From: a virus
Taxonomy: Duplodnaviria; Heunggongvirae; Uroviricota; Caudoviricetes
Length of the DNA stretch: 27,186 nucleotides
Reading direction: 5' to 3' (one strand)
IMG/VR virus record: IMGVR_UViG_2537561936_000020
Coordinates: 1 to 27,186 of that record
Part shown: piece by piece, positions 637 through 13,991 of the stretch
Layout of the letters: each line of letters starts with the position of its first letter
How positions within the stretch are numbered: the stretch's first letter is position 1
Translations under genes and position numbers: made by a program
Notes under the pieces: generated by a model
Told to the model about the DNA's origin: nothing
The model's database searches: none
The model's input: only the letters and a program-made list of their open reading frames with translations

Positions 637-1131
637 ATGGCCATGATGATGATCTACGGCATGTTTGTTTTTGAGCTGCGCACACTGCCGCATCAGCAGT
701 TACAGCAAAACAAAAGCTGGCGGCATGTGAAAAATGAGCGCGTAAACCGCTCAGCAAGCTGGCAGTATATCGGTGCAGGTGATGATCGCATCGTGCTTTC
801 TGGCGTGCTTTATCCTGAAATTACAGGTGGCGAAGTGTCGCTTTCGCTGCTGACCACGCAGGCATATACAGGACGCCCCTGGCCTCTGATTGATGGTGTC
901 GGGCAGATTTACGGCATGTATGTACTGACTGAAACGAATACGACCCGCTCCGAGTTTGATCGCTACGGTAAGGCGAAAAAGATAGAATTTTCACTGACTC
1001 TTGAACGCTGTGATGAGGATTTGCGGGAGCGCCTGCAATCCTCATCGTTCAGTGATATGCTGTCCGGCTTCAAAGATAAGGTCACATCATCCCTTAACAG
1101 CGCGGCCAGCTCCGTTAAAGGGCTGTTTTGA
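637..1131 (+). CDS. U: Tail protein U (P2 gpU family)
   Basis: 164 aa. N-terminus (MMIYGMFVFELRTLPHQQLQ...WRH...GVLYPEITGG...WPLIDG) aligns with P2 gpU as recalled. Sits 6 bp after T. Confidence 0.85.
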   Translation: MAMMMIYGMFVFELRTLPHQQLQQNKSWRHVKNERVNRSASWQYIGAGDDRIVLSGVLYPEITGGEVSLSLLTTQAYTGRPWPLIDGVGQIYGMYVLTETNTTRSEFDRYGKAKKIEFSLTLERCDEDLRERLQSSSFSDMLSGFKDKVTSSLNSAASSVKGLF

Positions 1132-1138
1132 TTAACGC

Positions 1139-1168
1139 AAAACCGCTAATGGTCAGATTAGCGGTTTT
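1139..1168. terminator. Bidirectional hairpin between convergent U and invertase genes
   Basis: Perfect 12-bp inverted repeat AAAACCGCTAAT / ATTAGCGGTTTT with a 6-nt loop, followed by TTTTCATTTTCC on the + strand. It overlaps the invertase stop codon. Confidence 0.55.
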
Positions 1169-1757
1169 CATTTTCCTGAGTCTGCCTGGTTGTTTCTTCA
1201 GCCTGTATATCGCCTACAGGGTGATAACGATAAATCGTCGATATGCCGATGTCGTAAATGATCGCCAGTTGTTTCCTGTCATGACCGTTTTTAATCAGCC
1301 TCGCTATTTGCTCGTGTTGTTCTTTTGTCAACTTCGGGCGACGTCCGCCAATGCGTCCTTGTGCGCGTGCTGCTGCCAGCCCGGCCAGTGTACGCTCTAC
1401 AATTAATTCACGTTCCATTTCGGCTAAAGCCCCCATGACGTGAAAAAAGAAACGCCCCATGGGTGTTGATGTGTCAATGCTGTCCGTCAGACTACGGAAA
1501 TTAACACCTTTTTTCCGCAATTCCTCAATAAGCGTGATCAGGTGTTTCATACTTCTGCCCAGTCTGTCCAGCTTCCAGACAACCAGCGTATCTCCTTCTG
1601 ATAGCGTTCTGAGCAGTTTTTTCAATCCCGGTCTGGCTGATTTCGTTCCGCTGATTTTATCTTCAAAAATCAGTTCACATCCTGCGCAGTTCAGTGCATT
1701 GCGTTGTAAATCCGTGTTCTGGTCATTTGTTGACACACGAATATAGCCAATTTGCAT
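1158..1757 (-). CDS. Serine recombinase, DNA invertase of the Hin/Gin/Cin/Pin/Min family
   Basis: From internal Met: MQIGYIRVSTNDQNTDLQRNAL...LVVWKLDRLGRS...GRFFFHVMGALAEMERELIVERTLAGLAAARAQGR...IIYDIGISTIYR. Catalytic Ser in RVS and C-terminal HTH present. ORF-track start 1952 is an upstream extension; ATG at 1755-1757 checked in the DNA. Confidence 0.92.
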   Translation of the reverse strand: MQIGYIRVSTNDQNTDLQRNALNCAGCELIFEDKISGTKSARPGLKKLLRTLSEGDTLVVWKLDRLGRSMKHLITLIEELRKKGVNFRSLTDSIDTSTPMGRFFFHVMGALAEMERELIVERTLAGLAAARAQGRIGGRRPKLTKEQHEQIARLIKNGHDRKQLAIIYDIGISTIYRYHPVGDIQAEETTRQTQENENR

Positions 1758-1811
1758 AAAAAACATCCTTTTTGTTTCGTGAAAAATACATAGTTGGTAT
1801 AGGTAGGGATA

Positions 1812-1837
1812 AAGACGAAAACGTTGGTTTGGGGGAA
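1812..1837 (+). other. Candidate crossover site D (hix/gix-like, 12-2-12)
   Basis: AAGACGAAAACG-TT-GGTTTGGGGGAA. AAAAC(G/C)..GGTTT halves around a 2-bp core as in Hin-family sites. Lies exactly at the start of cassette 4. Confidence 0.6.
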
Positions 1838-2296
1838 GGCTCTGCGCTGCCCGTTGGTGTGCCCGTTCCATGGCCCTCAGCCACGCTGCCAACGGGGTGG
1901 CTGAAATGTAACGGCGCAGCATTTTCTTCTGAAATGTACCCCAATCTGGCAAAGGCCTACCCCACCAATAAATTACCGGATTTACGGGGCGAATTTATTC
2001 GCGGCTGGGATGACGGACGGGGCGTTGATAATGGGCGCAACCTACTGTCTGCACAGTCTGACGCTATTCAGAATATAGTTGGCACTTTTGGGCGTACTCA
2101 GCTTTTTAAAGATGCGCTTAATTCAGGACCATTTAGTCAAACTGACTCTATATTATCAGTAGGCTTACAACCAACTGAGATCATTGAAGGATATGGTGCT
2201 TCTGTATGGACATTCGACGCCTCTCGCTCAGTTCGCACAGCATCTGAAACACGCCCCCATAACATTGCGTTTAATTACATCGTAAGGGCAGCATGA
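1826..2296 (+). CDS. Silent alternative tail-fibre C-terminal cassette 4 (tail-collar-type domain)
   Basis: Shares the conserved start GEGSALPVGVPVPWP..GWLKCNGAAFSSEMYP..LPDLRGEFIRGWDDGRGVD and conserved end ETRPHNIAFNYIVRAA with the H C-terminus; central part is unique. No start codon of its own; ORF-track ATG at 1772 is probably fortuitous. Confidence 0.7.
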   Translation, partial: GLGEGSALPVGVPVPWPSATLPTGWLKCNGAAFSSEMYPNLAKAYPTNKLPDLRGEFIRGWDDGRGVDNGRNLLSAQSDAIQNIVGTFGRTQLFKDALNSGPFSQTDSILSVGLQPTEIIEGYGASVWTFDASRSVRTASETRPHNIAFNYIVRAA

Positions 2297-2315
2297 AAAC
2301 GTTGGTTTAGGAGAA
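2290..2315 (+). other. Candidate crossover site C (hix/gix-like)
   Basis: AGCATGAAAACG-TT-GGTTTAGGAGAA. Spans the stop of cassette 4 and the start of cassette 3. Confidence 0.6.
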
Positions 2316-2783
2316 GGCTCTGCACTGCCCGTTGGTGTGCCCGTTCCGTGGCCCTTAGCAACACCACCAACGGGCTGGCTGAAATGTAACGGTGCAGCAT
2401 TTTCTTCTGAAATGTACCCCAATCTGGCAAAAGCCTACCCCACCAATAAATTACCGGATTTACGGGGCGAATTTATTCGTGGCTGGGATGATGGGCGAGG
2501 AATTGATGCAGCACGCGCTTTATTGAGCATTCAAACCGGGATGTTGGAAAAACACCGCCATATTGTTGTAGCTAACGATGGATATGACACAAAGGATGAA
2601 TGGGAGTTGGCCACGATTTTCAAAAAAACATATACACAAGGCAGGGGGCTTGATGCCACAAATACAGGAGGGAGTTTGATTCCATCACCAACGCTTCATT
2701 CACGAGGAAGTATTGGTAACACAGGTGGTAGTGAAACCCGCCCCCGCAATATTGCATTTAACTATATCGTGAGGGCGGCTTAG
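2304..2783 (+). CDS. Silent alternative tail-fibre C-terminal cassette 3
   Basis: Same conserved N- and C-terminal blocks (…ETRPRNIAFNYIVRAA*) with a unique middle. Begins at the crossover core with no start codon of its own. Confidence 0.7.
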   Translation, partial: GLGEGSALPVGVPVPWPLATPPTGWLKCNGAAFSSEMYPNLAKAYPTNKLPDLRGEFIRGWDDGRGIDAARALLSIQTGMLEKHRHIVVANDGYDTKDEWELATIFKKTYTQGRGLDATNTGGSLIPSPTLHSRGSIGNTGGSETRPRNIAFNYIVRAA

Positions 2784-2789
2784 TTATAT

Positions 2790-3401
2790 TCAACTGGCTG
2801 ATGCCAGTGGTATTCCCGGCAAGTTGATATCTGGTGCCATGTTTATATCCATTGCGTTCAGCGCGTCTATATAATCCAGCACGGCATTAAGCCGGGTGGT
2901 TTCTGCCTGCGTCAACTTCCGCCCGGCCCGCAACTTCAACTGAATCAGACTTATGGAATCCATTGCCGCATCAGCCAGTGACTGGCGCTTGGTTTCTGCC
3001 GCTTCTACTGCGGCACTATGTTGTGCCTCAGTATCTGTCACCCATTTTTCACCATCCCATTTATCGTATGGTGTTGACGGGGAGATAGTGGTTGTATTTT
3101 TCGGGTAGTCACCTAGCGTCGTGATTTCTTCGGTGTTTCCCGTGTCAGTGTTATAGACGGTTTCACCACGATGATCTGGCGTATACTCCCATGAATTTAA
3201 ATTCTCCGAACGGCGGATAGCATAGCCCGCTTTATGTGCGCCCGGGGCATCTAAACAGGAATTTGCCGGAATACCGACACCCGCAGCAAGATATTCAGTT
3301 GATTCGGAAATATATTCCCGTGTCTCACCATCATAGTTATAAACGACGATGTTTCCTGCCTGTACGGCAATAAGGTCATCATTTAATATCGCGTTATTCA
3401 T
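2790..3401 (-). CDS. tfa: Tail fibre assembly chaperone (Tfa / P2 gpG-like)
   Basis: 203 aa. GVGIPANS...EYTPDHRGETVYNTDTG...YDKWDGEKWVTDTEAQ and a C-terminal helical region typical of lambda Tfa / P2 G family. ATG overlaps the TAA of cassette 2 (TAATG). Confidence 0.8.
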   Translation of the reverse strand: MNNAILNDDLIAVQAGNIVVYNYDGETREYISESTEYLAAGVGIPANSCLDAPGAHKAGYAIRRSENLNSWEYTPDHRGETVYNTDTGNTEEITTLGDYPKNTTTISPSTPYDKWDGEKWVTDTEAQHSAAVEAAETKRQSLADAAMDSISLIQLKLRAGRKLTQAETTRLNAVLDYIDALNAMDINMAPDINLPGIPLASAS

Positions 3402-3859
3402 TATGCGGTTCTCACAATATAATTGAAGGCAATATTGCGTGGGCGGGTTTCATTCCCCTCTGAGGATTCCGTTCTGTATTGACTGGTAAATCTACCGTTA
3501 ATTGCACCTTGCCGGACGGCGTTATCTGTCGACAACAGACTATCCCCGCCTTTGTCATTTGGCACCAGTACCGTGTTATCCCACGCATCCCATGACCGAA
3601 TATTATGATAATGACTTCCTGTTAACCACCCCTGCATGCTTAAGATGACCCTTCCGGCATCCACCCCGCGCCCATCATCCCAGCCACGGATAAATTCACC
3701 GCGTAAGTCTGGTAATTTATTGGTGGGGTAAGCCATTGCCAGTCTGGGATACATTTCAGAAGAAAATGCTGCGCCGTTACATTTCAGCCACCCCGTTGGC
3801 GGCGTGGCTGAGGGCCATGGAACAGGTACACCAACGGGCAGTGCAGAGCCTTCCCCCAA
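3401..3859 (-). CDS. Silent alternative tail-fibre C-terminal cassette 2
   Basis: Conserved N and C blocks (…NIAFNYIVRTA*). The ORF-track start is TTG within the crossover site; translationally coupled to tfa. Confidence 0.7.
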   Translation of the reverse strand: MGEGSALPVGVPVPWPSATPPTGWLKCNGAAFSSEMYPRLAMAYPTNKLPDLRGEFIRGWDDGRGVDAGRVILSMQGWLTGSHYHNIRSWDAWDNTVLVPNDKGGDSLLSTDNAVRQGAINGRFTSQYRTESSEGNETRPRNIAFNYIVRTA

Positions 3860-3876
3860 ACCAACGTTTTCATGCT
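3851..3876 (-). other. Candidate crossover site B (hix/gix-like)
   Basis: On the - strand AGCATGAAAACG-TT-GGTTTGGGGGAA, matching site D in its right half and site C in its left half. Overlaps the H stop codon. Confidence 0.6.
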
Positions 3877-5513
3877 GCTCTTACGATGTAATTAAACGCA
3901 ATGTTGCGTGGGCGGTTTTCGTTTGCAGTTGGAACAATTCTTGAAGCATCAAGGCCAATCACTTTTGGGTAAACAGTGCCATCTGTTCTTTCAGTCACCA
4001 TACTTCTGATTAAGGAGAAATAACTATTGTTCGTTGAGGGACTCAAAGGCACCACTGCCCCCTTAAATGAGTCTACTGATTCCCATATTGAATAATTTTC
4101 GGTGTTTACAGTCTTGAACTCACCATAGATATTACGTATGGCATCACCTTGAGCGGATAATATTGTTCTCCCCGCATCCACACCACGTCCGTCATCCCAA
4201 CCACGGATAAATTCACCGCGTAAATCCGGTAATTTATTGGTGGGATAAGCCTTTGCCAGTTTTGGGTACTTTTCAGAAGAAAATGCTGCTCCGTTGCATT
4301 TCAGCCATCCCGTTGGCGGTGTTTCTAAGGGCCACGGAACGGGTACACCAACGGGCAGTGCAGAGCCTTCCCCCAAACCAAGGTAATCAAGAACTCCCTG
4401 AGTGCTGGTTTTGCCAAGAATGGCACGTCCAACACTTGTCAACGCGGTTAACGCGGCACGATCTGCCCCTGTAAAATATGGGAGTTTATCTGCTGATGTA
4501 GCAAGCTCCGCCAGCGCCGTCAGGGTGGCATCCTTCGGTTGCTTACCCGCAAGCGCGTTAGTCATGGTGGTCGCAAAATTCGGGTCATTGCCCAGCGCCG
4601 CAGCCAGTTCGTTCAGCGTGTTCAGTGCATCAGGTGACGAGTCTACAAGTGCGGCAATCGCGGCCATAACGAAAGCCGTGCTTGCGATCTGGGTACTATT
4701 AGTCCCCTGTGCCGCTGTTGGTGTTGTTGGCGTTCCGGTCAGTGCCGGGCTGTTTAATGGTGCTTTCTTGTTCGTTTCATCCATTACCGCCTTAACAGCT
4801 TTTGGTGTCGCTGCCAGTGTTTCAGACGTGCTGTTCGTGGCGCTACTGAGCTGAACAATCCCTTTTTGTGTAGTGGTGGCGTTCTGGGCGGTATATTTCT
4901 CGTTAGCCAGGTCATATGCAGCCTTAACCGCTTTCGGTGTTGCGGCCAGTGTTTCTGATTCACTGTTAATTGCACTGCTTAACTGAGTAAAACCTTTTAC
5001 GGTCAGCGAGGCGTCTGGGTGACGTCGTGACTGTTCGTGCTCTGAGATTTTATCATCCACATATTTGCGGGTTGCCAGAACCACAGACGGGTCGATTTTC
5101 AGCGTGATGGCTTCGGTGTTCGTGACAACCAGAATCATGCGGATAGTCTGGGTGCGTCCACTGCCTTCCTGCAACTGCGGTTTGTACGTTTCCGGGCAGT
5201 TTGCCACCGCAATGAGTACACCTTCATCATCATAAAGACCAATCTCACGGATCCAGAATCCTCCCTCGTTTTCAGGGATGATTTGCTCCGCAATAATCTG
5301 GCTCTGATTGTTAGGGTCAACACTCAGAAGATTCAGCGGTGCAATGCGTTTCTGGTTAATCAGTTTTGTTTGTGCAGGGTCTGGTGTTGGTAACACACCA
5401 TTTGCATCACCAACGGCCATTTGCGTCAGATTCAGCTTACTGCCGAGCATCGTCGCGTTAGCCAGTCGTGCTGCGCCCTGATTAGTCAGAATGGCGTAGT
5501 ATTTCACTGTCAT
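3870..5513 (-). CDS. H: Tail fibre protein H: P2-like constant N-terminal region fused to invertible C-terminal cassette 1
   Basis: 547 aa. First ~390 aa match P2 gpH (…YVDDKISEHEQSRRHPDASLTVKGFTQLSSA…ATPKAVKAVMDETNKKAPLNSPALTGTPTTPTA…). C-terminal ~160 aa is the cassette-type domain ending NIAFNYIVRAA. Confidence 0.9.
   Translation of the reverse strand: MTVKYYAILTNQGAARLANATMLGSKLNLTQMAVGDANGVLPTPDPAQTKLINQKRIAPLNLLSVDPNNQSQIIAEQIIPENEGGFWIREIGLYDDEGVLIAVANCPETYKPQLQEGSGRTQTIRMILVVTNTEAITLKIDPSVVLATRKYVDDKISEHEQSRRHPDASLTVKGFTQLSSAINSESETLAATPKAVKAAYDLANEKYTAQNATTTQKGIVQLSSATNSTSETLAATPKAVKAVMDETNKKAPLNSPALTGTPTTPTAAQGTNSTQIASTAFVMAAIAALVDSSPDALNTLNELAAALGNDPNFATTMTNALAGKQPKDATLTALAELATSADKLPYFTGADRAALTALTSVGRAILGKTSTQGVLDYLGLGEGSALPVGVPVPWPLETPPTGWLKCNGAAFSSEKYPKLAKAYPTNKLPDLRGEFIRGWDDGRGVDAGRTILSAQGDAIRNIYGEFKTVNTENYSIWESVDSFKGAVVPLSPSTNNSYFSLIRSMVTERTDGTVYPKVIGLDASRIVPTANENRPRNIAFNYIVRAA
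4368..4393 (-). other. Candidate crossover site A inside H (constant/variable junction)
   Basis: On the - strand TTCTTGATTACC-TT-GGTTTGGGGGAA. Left half resembles hixL TTCTTGAAAACC; right half is identical to sites B and D. Confidence 0.6.
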
Positions 5514-6118
5514 GCGTTTACTCTCAGATTATCAATTAAATGAATGGCCGGGGCAGGGAAATAATCCCCTTCGACAATAATGGACTCCGGGGTGTAGGGA
5601 TAAACCGTCAGGGCATCGCCGTGATAGCATCCCGTACCAACGAAAATCTTTCCGTTCACACTCAGGCTGATCGCCAGCCCCGTCAGATGGCGACTTACTG
5701 GTTTTGCATCCGCAATAAGGCGCTCAAGTTCCTGATACATTTCATCGGTGATGCCCTGATCAAGTACTCCGACAACAATGCGAAATGTTCCTGGCTCCTC
5801 GTTGAGTTGCCACCACTCCTTTACTTCAATCAGGTAGCCGAGAGGCTCCACGGCTCTTCGCAGTGCGCTGATGGTCCCTTTGTGTCGGTGTATCAGCCAT
5901 GCATCACGAATTACCTGTCGCTTTGTCTCTTCCGGCCAGTTGCGATCCCAGCGGTCAACGGAAAACGCCCAGGCGAGATAAGGCAGCAGATGCACCGGGC
6001 AGGTGTCCGGCGACCACAGCGTGTTGAGGTCTACCGGAATGTCTGTAATGCGTGTTCCGACGGCTTCGGCACAACGCATGAAATTGCTGGCTGATGGTGG
6101 TAACAGTGAATTACTCAT
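5510..6118 (-). CDS. I: Baseplate assembly protein I
   Basis: From Met12 (MSNSLLPP…): LWSPDTCPVHLLPYLAWAFSVDRWD..W.E..KR.VIRDA matches P2 gpI. ATG at 6116-6118 checked. ORF-track start 6151 is an alternative. Confidence 0.85.
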   Translation of the reverse strand: MSNSLLPPSASNFMRCAEAVGTRITDIPVDLNTLWSPDTCPVHLLPYLAWAFSVDRWDRNWPEETKRQVIRDAWLIHRHKGTISALRRAVEPLGYLIEVKEWWQLNEEPGTFRIVVGVLDQGITDEMYQELERLIADAKPVSRHLTGLAISLSVNGKIFVGTGCYHGDALTVYPYTPESIIVEGDYFPAPAIHLIDNLRVNA

Positions 6119-13837: not shown

Positions 13838-13991
13838 AGTTTTTGCCCCTCTGACTGGTTCTTCAGTCATGATGGCAAAGCGTAACAGGCTGATACAAAG
13901 GGCTTTTGTTGTAAGAAAACGGCCAGAACAGGGGGTTAAGGAGAACGGTTTCGCGCGCGGGTAATCTTCCTGTAATTACTCAGGGGGAGCA
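13838..13991. promoter_or_regulatory. Divergent late-promoter region between O and P
   Basis: 154-bp gap between divergently oriented O and P, as for the P2 late promoters. Contains the near-dyad ACAAAGGGCTTTTGT. No precise promoter assigned. Confidence 0.35.

Follow-up and report, generated by a model that had tools for sequence, protein, structure and literature searches.

Organization of the tail-fibre locus

The 27,186-nucleotide stretch of DNA analysed here, hereafter the window (positions 1 to 27,186 of the IMG/VR virus record IMGVR_UViG_2537561936_000020; Caudoviricetes), carries a full P2-like structural gene set, and its left 5.5 kb form the tail-fibre end of the prophage, in which a single tail-fibre assembly (chaperone) gene, tfa, stands among four alternative fibre tips. 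The locus belongs to a P2-like Escherichia coli prophage with a Peduoviridae backbone and is organised as a multiple-inversion array of tail-fibre tips served by a serine invertase, an arrangement that is already recognised and widespread. On the minus strand, the baseplate genes V, W, J and I are followed by the fibre gene H (3870-5513), while the tape-measure and gpU genes on the plus strand, ending at 1131, converge on this V-W-J-I-H side. Between gpU and H lie a hairpin, a serine invertase gene, four cassettes with a Collar domain and tfa. The invertase (1158-1757, minus strand) is of the Gin/Cin/Pin/Min/Hin type and combines an N-terminal resolvase catalytic domain (Pfam Resolvase, E = 1.7e-51) with a C-terminal helix-turn-helix (HTH_7, E = 1.4e-12), as in small serine recombinases. 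The constant part of H (4380-5513, minus strand) was matched by Phage_tail_fib (E = 1.6e-62) and Phage_fiber_2 (E = 2.3e-42), and in the state captured by the window it is fused to cassette A (3870-4379, minus strand). Cassette B (3401-3862, minus strand) comes next, followed by tfa (2790-3401, minus strand) and, on the opposite strand, by cassettes C (2304-2783) and D (1826-2296); A to D are cassettes 1 to 4 of the preliminary description of this DNA. All four were matched by Pfam Collar at about 1e-14 (C, E = 2e-14; D, E = 3.9e-14).

The tfa product comprises 203 residues, with a Caudo_TAP domain (PF02413, E = 2.6e-31) at residues 78-198 behind a variable N-terminal domain, the roles of the Tfa domains being those given by North et al. 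2019, as summarised in PMC9608196. A hidden Markov model (HMM) built from 121 Tfa relatives, which also picks up the distant Tfa types of phages P88 and 500465-2, had one match only in the 27-kb window, the gene at 2790-3401, in agreement with the preliminary description, which had reported tfa as a single gene. A profile of the family alignment including the P88 Tfas, which are very similar to Mu U, matched the Mu Tfa U structure (PDB 5YVQ) with E = 1.2e-60; the window Tfa sequence alone gave no match to 5YVQ. The two junctions of tfa had also been described correctly. On its upstream side tfa starts within the end of cassette B, the ATG of tfa (3401-3399) and the TAA stop of B (3403-3401) sharing one base in a TAATG arrangement, and B is the only one of the four cassettes so coupled. 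On its downstream side, tfa converges on cassette C, with 6 bp (2784-2789) between the tfa TGA stop (2792-2790) and the C TAG stop, which ends at 2783.

Crossover sites and inversion isomers

Every cassette starts with a 26-bp crossover site consisting of a 12-bp left half, a TT core and a right half (GGTTTRGGRGAA). The sites lie at the head of cassette D (1812-1837, plus strand; AAGACGAAAACG TT GGTTTGGGGGAA), at the head of cassette C (2290-2315, plus strand; AGCATGAAAACG TT GGTTTAGGAGAA), at the head of cassette B (3851-3876, minus strand) and inside H at the boundary between its constant and variable parts (4368-4393, minus strand; TTCTTGATTACC TT GGTTTGGGGGAA). A consensus scan of the window recovered exactly these four (matches at 1817-1837, 2295-2315, 3851-3871 and 4368-4388), against 0.04 expected by chance, and they are of the same type as the sites listed for the E. 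coli EC958 prophage Phi2 (PMC4134206). The scan found no site between tfa and cassette C, where an additional site had been named beforehand as one of the findings that would speak against the proposed layout. The stops of the preceding cassettes overlap an out-of-frame ATG (GCAGCATGAAAACG) in the left half of the next site (3870-3876 and 2290-2296), and this ATG opens a 29-codon open reading frame over the conserved collar region, which may be incidental.

We then listed every arrangement that can arise when oppositely oriented sites recombine. Four sites and four cassettes gave 12 isomers, and the segment B-tfa-C, which contains no site, stays whole in all of them. In half of the isomers (6/12) tfa is co-oriented with H, namely in both H-B isomers, in two of the four H-A isomers and in two of the four H-D isomers, the remaining two H-A and two H-D states being antisense. 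Cassette C is the sole tip without a sense state, since tfa is antisense to H in both H-C isomers. The earlier proposal that tfa would be antisense whenever cassette C or cassette D is fused to H is thus borne out for C in every case, but not for D, and the enumeration confines the question of tfa supply to H-C and to those H-A and H-D states in which tfa is antisense. Each of these six isomers has every segment from tfa to the invertase side oriented like tfa.

The window itself is in the H-A state with tfa in sense, and other enumerated isomers were found in public assemblies. IMG/VR contig L046 has all five segments 100% identical to those of the window in the order H-C, antisense tfa, D and A, and L047, with segments 99.6-100% identical, is in the H-B state; in both, the segment breakpoints coincide with the predicted crossover sites. 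Inversion between the sites thus takes place. By our reading of the architectures, about 8 assemblies have tfa in sense and 5 in antisense. Flipping of tfa alone through 61-nt inverted repeats in the 3' ends of B and C was considered and discarded: the repeats are 79% identical with a longest perfect run of about 11 bp, and no locus has tfa turned relative to B.

Pairing of Tfa with tip heads in related loci

To place the single tfa in a comparative setting, we fetched 207 related loci by similarity to Tfa and to cassette C, and the comparisons below refer to these loci unless stated otherwise. They contained 310 complete cassettes, of which 192 were coupled to a tfa, 82 lay ahead of another cassette and 31 converged on a tfa, with 4 in another context and 1 at a contig end. 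Stop/start overlap was present in 124 of the 151 unique cassette-tfa pairs, a recurrence beyond chance. Different head types were coupled to Tfas 97-99% identical over their full length, and a single-linkage cluster at 90% N-domain identity joined 69 Tfas with 18 head types, including those of A and C. Conversely, head C was found with Tfas that share only 53-78% N-domain identity with the window Tfa.

The heads that lack a coupled tfa in the window have one elsewhere. TAATG coupling to tfa was found for head A in 12 loci, for head C in 26 and for head D in 2, while head B was coupled to tfa in all of its 32 occurrences. For heads C and A, a comparison of copies with and without a coupled tfa detected no fixed amino-acid difference. 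The suggestion that some tips need no chaperone at all is disfavoured by these two observations.

Fold, heads and selection of the tips

A phmmer search matched the cassette to the T4 gp37 tip (PDB 2XGF) in two places, at the collar (residues 27-91) and at residues 219-242, which include NIAFNYIVRLA; further matches were to the short tail fibre 9CUY (E = 7.9e-19) and to T4 gp12. NIAFNYIVRLA is the C-terminus of T4 gp37, and the cassettes end in NIAFNYIVRAA, as D does, or NIAFNYIVRTA, an ending shared by about 190 of 210 cassettes from several genera. The needle of T4 gp37 is six-stranded and antiparallel, each chain going out to the head and then returning, and by analogy with this needle we infer that the cassette chains likewise return to the collar. 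One collar scaffold would then be made of the ~70 conserved residues at the N-terminus together with the C-terminal strand, and the 60-90 variable residues between them would be the receptor-binding head. On this sequence comparison, the shared end is in the first place a structural strand of a T4 gp37-like collar fold, and it also supplies homology for head swapping.

The heads fall into two classes. Tips like gp37 and gp12 are expected to carry a metal-binding HxH motif behind the collar; an HxH motif follows the collar in B (HYH), C (HRH) and head types 4 and 5, and A and D have DAIxNI instead. In arrays, the two positions flanking tfa are occupied by HxH heads (16/17 and 18/18 unique cassettes), whereas the distal positions are mixed, and common descent of the central module may be the reason.

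Cassettes that converge on tfa are well preserved. All 31 were complete with canonical ends, and among C cassettes in this position 16 of 16 unique copies were full-length, with a ratio of nonsynonymous to synonymous substitution (dN/dS) in the head of 0.11-0.14. This is close to the ratio of C copies with their own tfa (0.11), of B copies (0.18) and of heads overall (0.11-0.24), and tfa in arrays had a dN/dS of 0.20. These ratios argue that the always-antisense C tip is under purifying selection and that H-C would give a working fibre.

Candidate signals for tfa expression

Translation of tfa looks state-dependent, as the TAATG coupling works in H-B alone because unfused B has no plausible start codon. 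Ways in which tfa might be transcribed when antisense to H were also searched for. A sigma-70 promoter tool run over 1000-5700 returned 7 sites against 6.7 expected, none of them upstream of tfa on the tfa strand. Relaxed scans gave just 7-8 of 12 matches, at a background density of 2.3 per kb per strand, and the plus strand from 1150 to 1860 held no sigma-70-like site above 7 of 12. A sigma-70 promoter for tfa in cassette B or on the invertase side was rejected on these grounds.

Late promoters of the Ogr/Delta type were considered next. The motif GTTGT-N12-AGAAC, centred at -55, was found at 13908-13929 of the window, between the capsid-scaffold and terminase genes, and also ahead of the D72 and P88 sheath genes (L208, ~5788-5809; L126, ~2531-2552). 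It lies about 55 bp upstream of plausible -10 elements and looks like this group's version of the P2 late-promoter activator site. A copy with two mismatches near the 3' end of B (3471-3492) has a spacing that would fit tfa, but both its dyad and its -10 vary in sister arrays, and it was set aside. With sigma-70 scans at background and this Ogr-type candidate not conserved, the idea that tfa has its own promoter found no support. No ogr-like zinc-finger gene was found in the window; in the near-identical prophage of E. coli D72 an ogr/Delta gene lies beyond the position of the window's left end. The profile of synonymous diversity in B, considered as a possible sign of an embedded signal, was uninformative.

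The invertase side of the array offered two further candidates. From the start of the invertase gene to the outermost crossover site there are ~55 bp, which occur in two sequence classes. Class 1, to which the window belongs (1758-1811), carries a conserved TGT-N12-ACA (1773-1790 in the window) and TGGTATAGG; it accompanies single-tfa arrays exclusively, whether the backbone is P2-like or P1-like, and two-tfa segments carry the other class, without TGT-N12-ACA. An Ogr/Delta-type late promoter at 1773-1790 was rejected, as perfect TGT-N12-ACA sites are not enriched in the window (5 versus 6.6 expected) and this one is not 55 bp from a usable -10. The dyad itself (1773-1790; 661-678 in L210) is conserved in all class-1 regions with variable inner bases, and it misfits an Ogr site at -55.

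The second candidate was read-through from the late operon converging on the invertible region. The gpU-like tail gene (637-1131, plus strand; Phage_P2_GpU, E = 5.5e-39), with the same layout in P88 and 500465-2, is the final gene of the plus-strand sheath-tube-tape-measure late operon. Between it and the invertase gene lies a bidirectional terminator-like hairpin (1139-1168) with a 12-bp stem and T runs on both strands (minimum free energy -18.6 and -16.9 kcal/mol, z -2.2 and -3.0), which is conserved in P88 and 500465-2. Read-through was disfavoured, as the hairpin is equally stable in these two-tfa phages and P1-like arrays occur without such an operon.

On the minus strand, no terminator-like site was present at 1757-2790, the stretch that separates the H/tfa transcription unit from the invertase gene. 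Late transcripts of the H operon that read on past tfa would therefore include the invertase in sense and stop at the hairpin, which could raise inversion late in infection.

Distribution of the array and its relatives

Two architectures were found among the 207 loci, a Mu-like mirror image, which is the commoner, and the single-tfa array. The mirror image reads invertase, cassette, tfa, then in the opposite orientation tfa, tip and H, so that each tip has its own tfa; P88 and 500465-2 have this two-tfa form on the same backbone as the window prophage, and two-tfa segments with collar tips on both sides were found in L148, L197 and L202. The module in which a cassette and its tfa face a convergent cassette was present in 30 of the fetched loci, with 2-8 cassettes per locus, and 29 of these had one tfa. 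The exception, L056 (IMG/VR UViG 2541047915_000010), has two tfa genes in opposite orientations, apparently in two B-tfa-C modules, and is the only such array fetched. Some relatives, L001 among them, are degraded, and C-type cassettes also occupy array positions that allow expression with tfa in sense.

Beyond the fetched loci, 80 of 5,426 complete E. coli genomes contained the exact C/tfa junction, that of enteropathogenic strain E2348/69 among them, whereas the 50,697 deposited phage genomes searched had no copy of it; nearly all known examples of these arrays are in prophages and phage-plasmids. The P1-like phage-plasmid pMTY9975 has 11 cassettes and one tfa, with 5 further cassettes before its S gene, an invertase 96.7% identical to that of the window and the head types seen in the window. 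The P1-like phage-plasmid tfa is of the same lineage as the window tfa, and the window invertase is 96.7% identical in amino acids to the invertase beside a 17-cassette array on a P1-like plasmid. The largest array observed, L210 (plasmid NZ_CP135665.1, 81386-94053), has 17 cassettes, several of them duplicated, and a single tfa.

The D72 prophage (L208) extends past the left end of the window and there contains tape-measure, E, tube, sheath, D, ogr/Delta, hok/gef and com/methylase genes. A second tfa just outside the window, which had been raised as a possible objection to the single-tfa layout, was absent from this part of the D72 prophage. The end of the D72 prophage also carries a TM2-domain gene, and its com and DNA-methyltransferase pair resembles Mu com/mom.

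Comparison with known inversion systems and fibre chaperones

The invertible segments of Mu (G, Gin) and P1 (C, Cin) share with the window the recombinase family, the 26-bp site type, the exchange of fibre C-termini and a Tfa-family gene directly downstream. They differ in layout: the Mu and P1 segments are mirror images with two sites, in which every tip is followed by a tfa of its own (Sv-U / U'-Sv'), whereas the window has four tips and one tfa, is not a mirror image and contains one tip that can never be co-oriented with tfa. With four crossover sites and four interchangeable 3' ends for a single constant gene, the window is instead a multiple-inversion array. In the Min system of plasmid p15B (X62121) from E. 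coli 15T-, described by Sandmeier, Iida, Arber and colleagues in 1990-92, a serine invertase with more than two sites joins alternative 3' cassettes to a constant 5' part of a tail-fibre gene, in a region reported as 3.5 kb with six cassettes, a size that corresponds to about six 480-bp cassettes plus a 0.6-kb tfa. The window array may well resemble this layout, to which the 96.7% invertase identity with arrays on P1-like phage-plasmids provides an indirect link; p15B is P1-like with six cassettes, and the window has four on a P2-like backbone. In R64-type shufflons, the Rci tyrosine recombinase uses multiple inversions to place alternative C-termini, the PilV tips, on one constant gene. The R64 shufflon is an analogy only, with a tyrosine recombinase, other sites, a pilus adhesin as product and no chaperone gene inside the array.

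For the tips and their chaperone, the nearest comparison is with T4 gp37/gp38 and lambda Stf/Tfa, the window cassettes matching the collar and the C-terminal end of gp37. The T4 gp37 tip is a long iron-studded needle, whereas the window heads are short (about 60-90 residues) and have HxH in B and C only; T4 and lambda also differ from the window in having no inversion and a chaperone gene always downstream of the fibre gene. Chaperones of the gp38/Tfa type can replace one another even where the tips differ in their receptor-binding inserts; lambda Tfa, for example, can substitute for T4 gp38 in gp37 folding.

The P2-like 'shufflon' of enteropathogenic E. coli (EPEC) E2348/69 belongs to the same family as the window array, with a tfa 94% identical and a C-tfa-B segment 96.5% identical to those of the window. 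Its layout is H fused to a tip X, then C in the same orientation, tfa and B in the opposite one, and the invertase, giving one tfa and three cassettes as against four in the window. Two overlapping inversions and four coexisting variants were detected there by paired-end sequencing and PCR, the short inversion, equivalent to a flip of B-tfa-C alone in the window, having a high and variable frequency (49 ± 37%) while the fused tip stayed ~90% constant, according to parts of the published report (Goldberg et al. 2014, PMC4272514). Those parts of the report do not discuss the chaperone gene or its orientation in this shufflon (PMC4272514).

Discussion

Taken together, these comparisons point to a head-agnostic Tfa that acts on an invariant collar and thereby serves all four tips, a reading to which we would give roughly an even chance of being right. 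The invertase, acting at four 26-bp sites, can fuse any of the four gp37-like collar tips to the constant part of H, with tfa held in the central segment B-tfa-C that is never split. The Tfa of this family would not be head-specific but would most likely act on the collar scaffold, that is, on the N-terminal ~70 residues together with the C-terminal strand ETRPRNIAFNYIVRAA, and one tfa gene could serve every tip because this scaffold is common to all four. A docking site for Tfa on the collar is what we infer from this. The earlier suggestion that the shared end lets one chaperone serve all tips thus survives in part: the comparative pairing supports a generalist chaperone, while the end itself is better accounted for as part of the fold. 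In this scheme tfa would be co-transcribed with H in 6 of the 12 isomers and translationally coupled only in the two H-B isomers. In the antisense isomers, Tfa could come from an unmapped transcript entering at the invertase side, or there may be none, leaving chaperone-poor states.

Several observations weigh against a Tfa that serves all tips. On the side of supply, neither the sigma-70 nor the Ogr-type scans yielded a promoter for tfa in the antisense isomers; the gpU-side hairpin is no weaker here than in the two-tfa phages P88 and 500465-2, and in the P1-like backbone no late operon runs towards the array from the side of the invertase. A 4-nt Shine-Dalgarno core was present in only 1 of 5 unique array tfa leaders, compared with 39 of 49 outside arrays, and on this evidence efficient translation of tfa may need coupling to B. 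On the side of specificity, the array Tfa clade was paired with B-type heads in 15 of 16 unique pairs, which fits a B-specific partner or mere physical linkage. The two Tfas of collar-tip pairs that share a classical segment (L148, L197, L202) are just 54-57% identical, a divergence that may reflect specialisation or avoided recombination between inverted gene copies, and among Tfas 73-80% identical to that of the window, N-domain identity was 94% when the head was the same and 85.5% when the heads differed. Lastly, recombination with copies selected in other contexts could keep the dN/dS of convergent C low.

Some of these observations would be expected if Tfa were the private partner of B, made efficiently only in H-B through the TAATG overlap, with A, C and D folding without Tfa in the array. 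The invariable coupling of B heads to tfa, the near-exclusive pairing of the array Tfa clade with B, the leaders poor in Shine-Dalgarno cores and the conservation of C despite an H-C state that is always tfa-antisense all agree with it. However, in other loci heads A, C and D each have a tfa of their own coupled to them, their A and C copies there show no fixed difference from the array copies, and a mere 4 of the 310 cassettes stand in a context without an adjoining tfa or a further cassette, while the association of B with tfa may simply reflect the lack of a recombination site between them. On balance, we regard a private partner as doubtful.

Two further explanations concern the antisense isomers, and we consider each of them unlikely, to a similar degree. 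According to the first, an inward promoter on the invertase side transcribes tfa in every isomer. The geometry permits this, the segments towards the invertase being co-oriented with tfa in the six antisense isomers; the class-1 upstream region accompanies only single-tfa arrays, on both backbones, and the purifying selection on the C tip would be accounted for. Against it stand the lack of any convincing sigma-70-like site on the plus strand of this region, a dyad that is neither at -55 from a plausible -10 nor enriched in the window, when the late promoters of the group look like GTTGT-N12-AGAAC, and the collision with the H operon that such transcription would entail.

According to the second, the antisense isomers are chaperone-less and yield few or no infectious particles, a cost that the array would bear, the convergent cassette being maintained chiefly for its crossover site and through recombination with functional copies in other places. 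No tfa promoter was found for these states, both orientations occur in assemblies, as expected if lysogens are not selected for state, and C-type cassettes are also found where they can be expressed with tfa in sense. A cassette that never gives a working fibre should nevertheless decay, and the convergent cassettes are without exception complete with canonical ends, the 16 unique C copies having head dN/dS as low as that of coupled copies. That the layout is merely the decayed remnant of a two-tfa Mu-type segment that lost one tfa in a defective prophage and has no working logic is very improbable. In its favour, there are two-tfa segments that have a collar tip at either side, decay is apparent in some relatives, and the junction is missing from deposited phage genomes. 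Against it, the one-tfa module is conserved in 80 E. coli genomes and on two phage backbones that are unrelated, its genes are intact, dN/dS is low in tfa and heads, arrays have grown to 17 cassettes and the window has a full structural gene set.

The orientation of tfa might also act as a second, independent switch that yields Tfa-capped and uncapped forms of the same tip, which we consider a distinctly unlikely extension. A short inversion between the B and C sites would flip B-tfa-C alone, turning the chaperone on or off while leaving the fused tip, A or D, unchanged. In Mu and Ur-lambda, Tfa remains on the finished fibre. If this held here, capped and uncapped tips would differ in receptor range, C would be obligately uncapped, and four cassettes would give up to six fibre phenotypes.

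Tail-fibre chaperones are usually seen as cognate partners that travel with their fibre, an assumption that shapes host-range engineering of phages and tailocins. The arrays offer natural evidence on this point, with one Tfa gene beside up to 17 gp37-like tips and near-identical Tfas found with many heads. If a single Tfa does fold all of these tips through the collar, heads would be swappable inside a fixed chassis of collar plus Tfa. The C tip, with tfa always antisense, lends itself to a clean genetic distinction between two possibilities, a need of such tips for the chaperone and a switching of chaperone presence itself.

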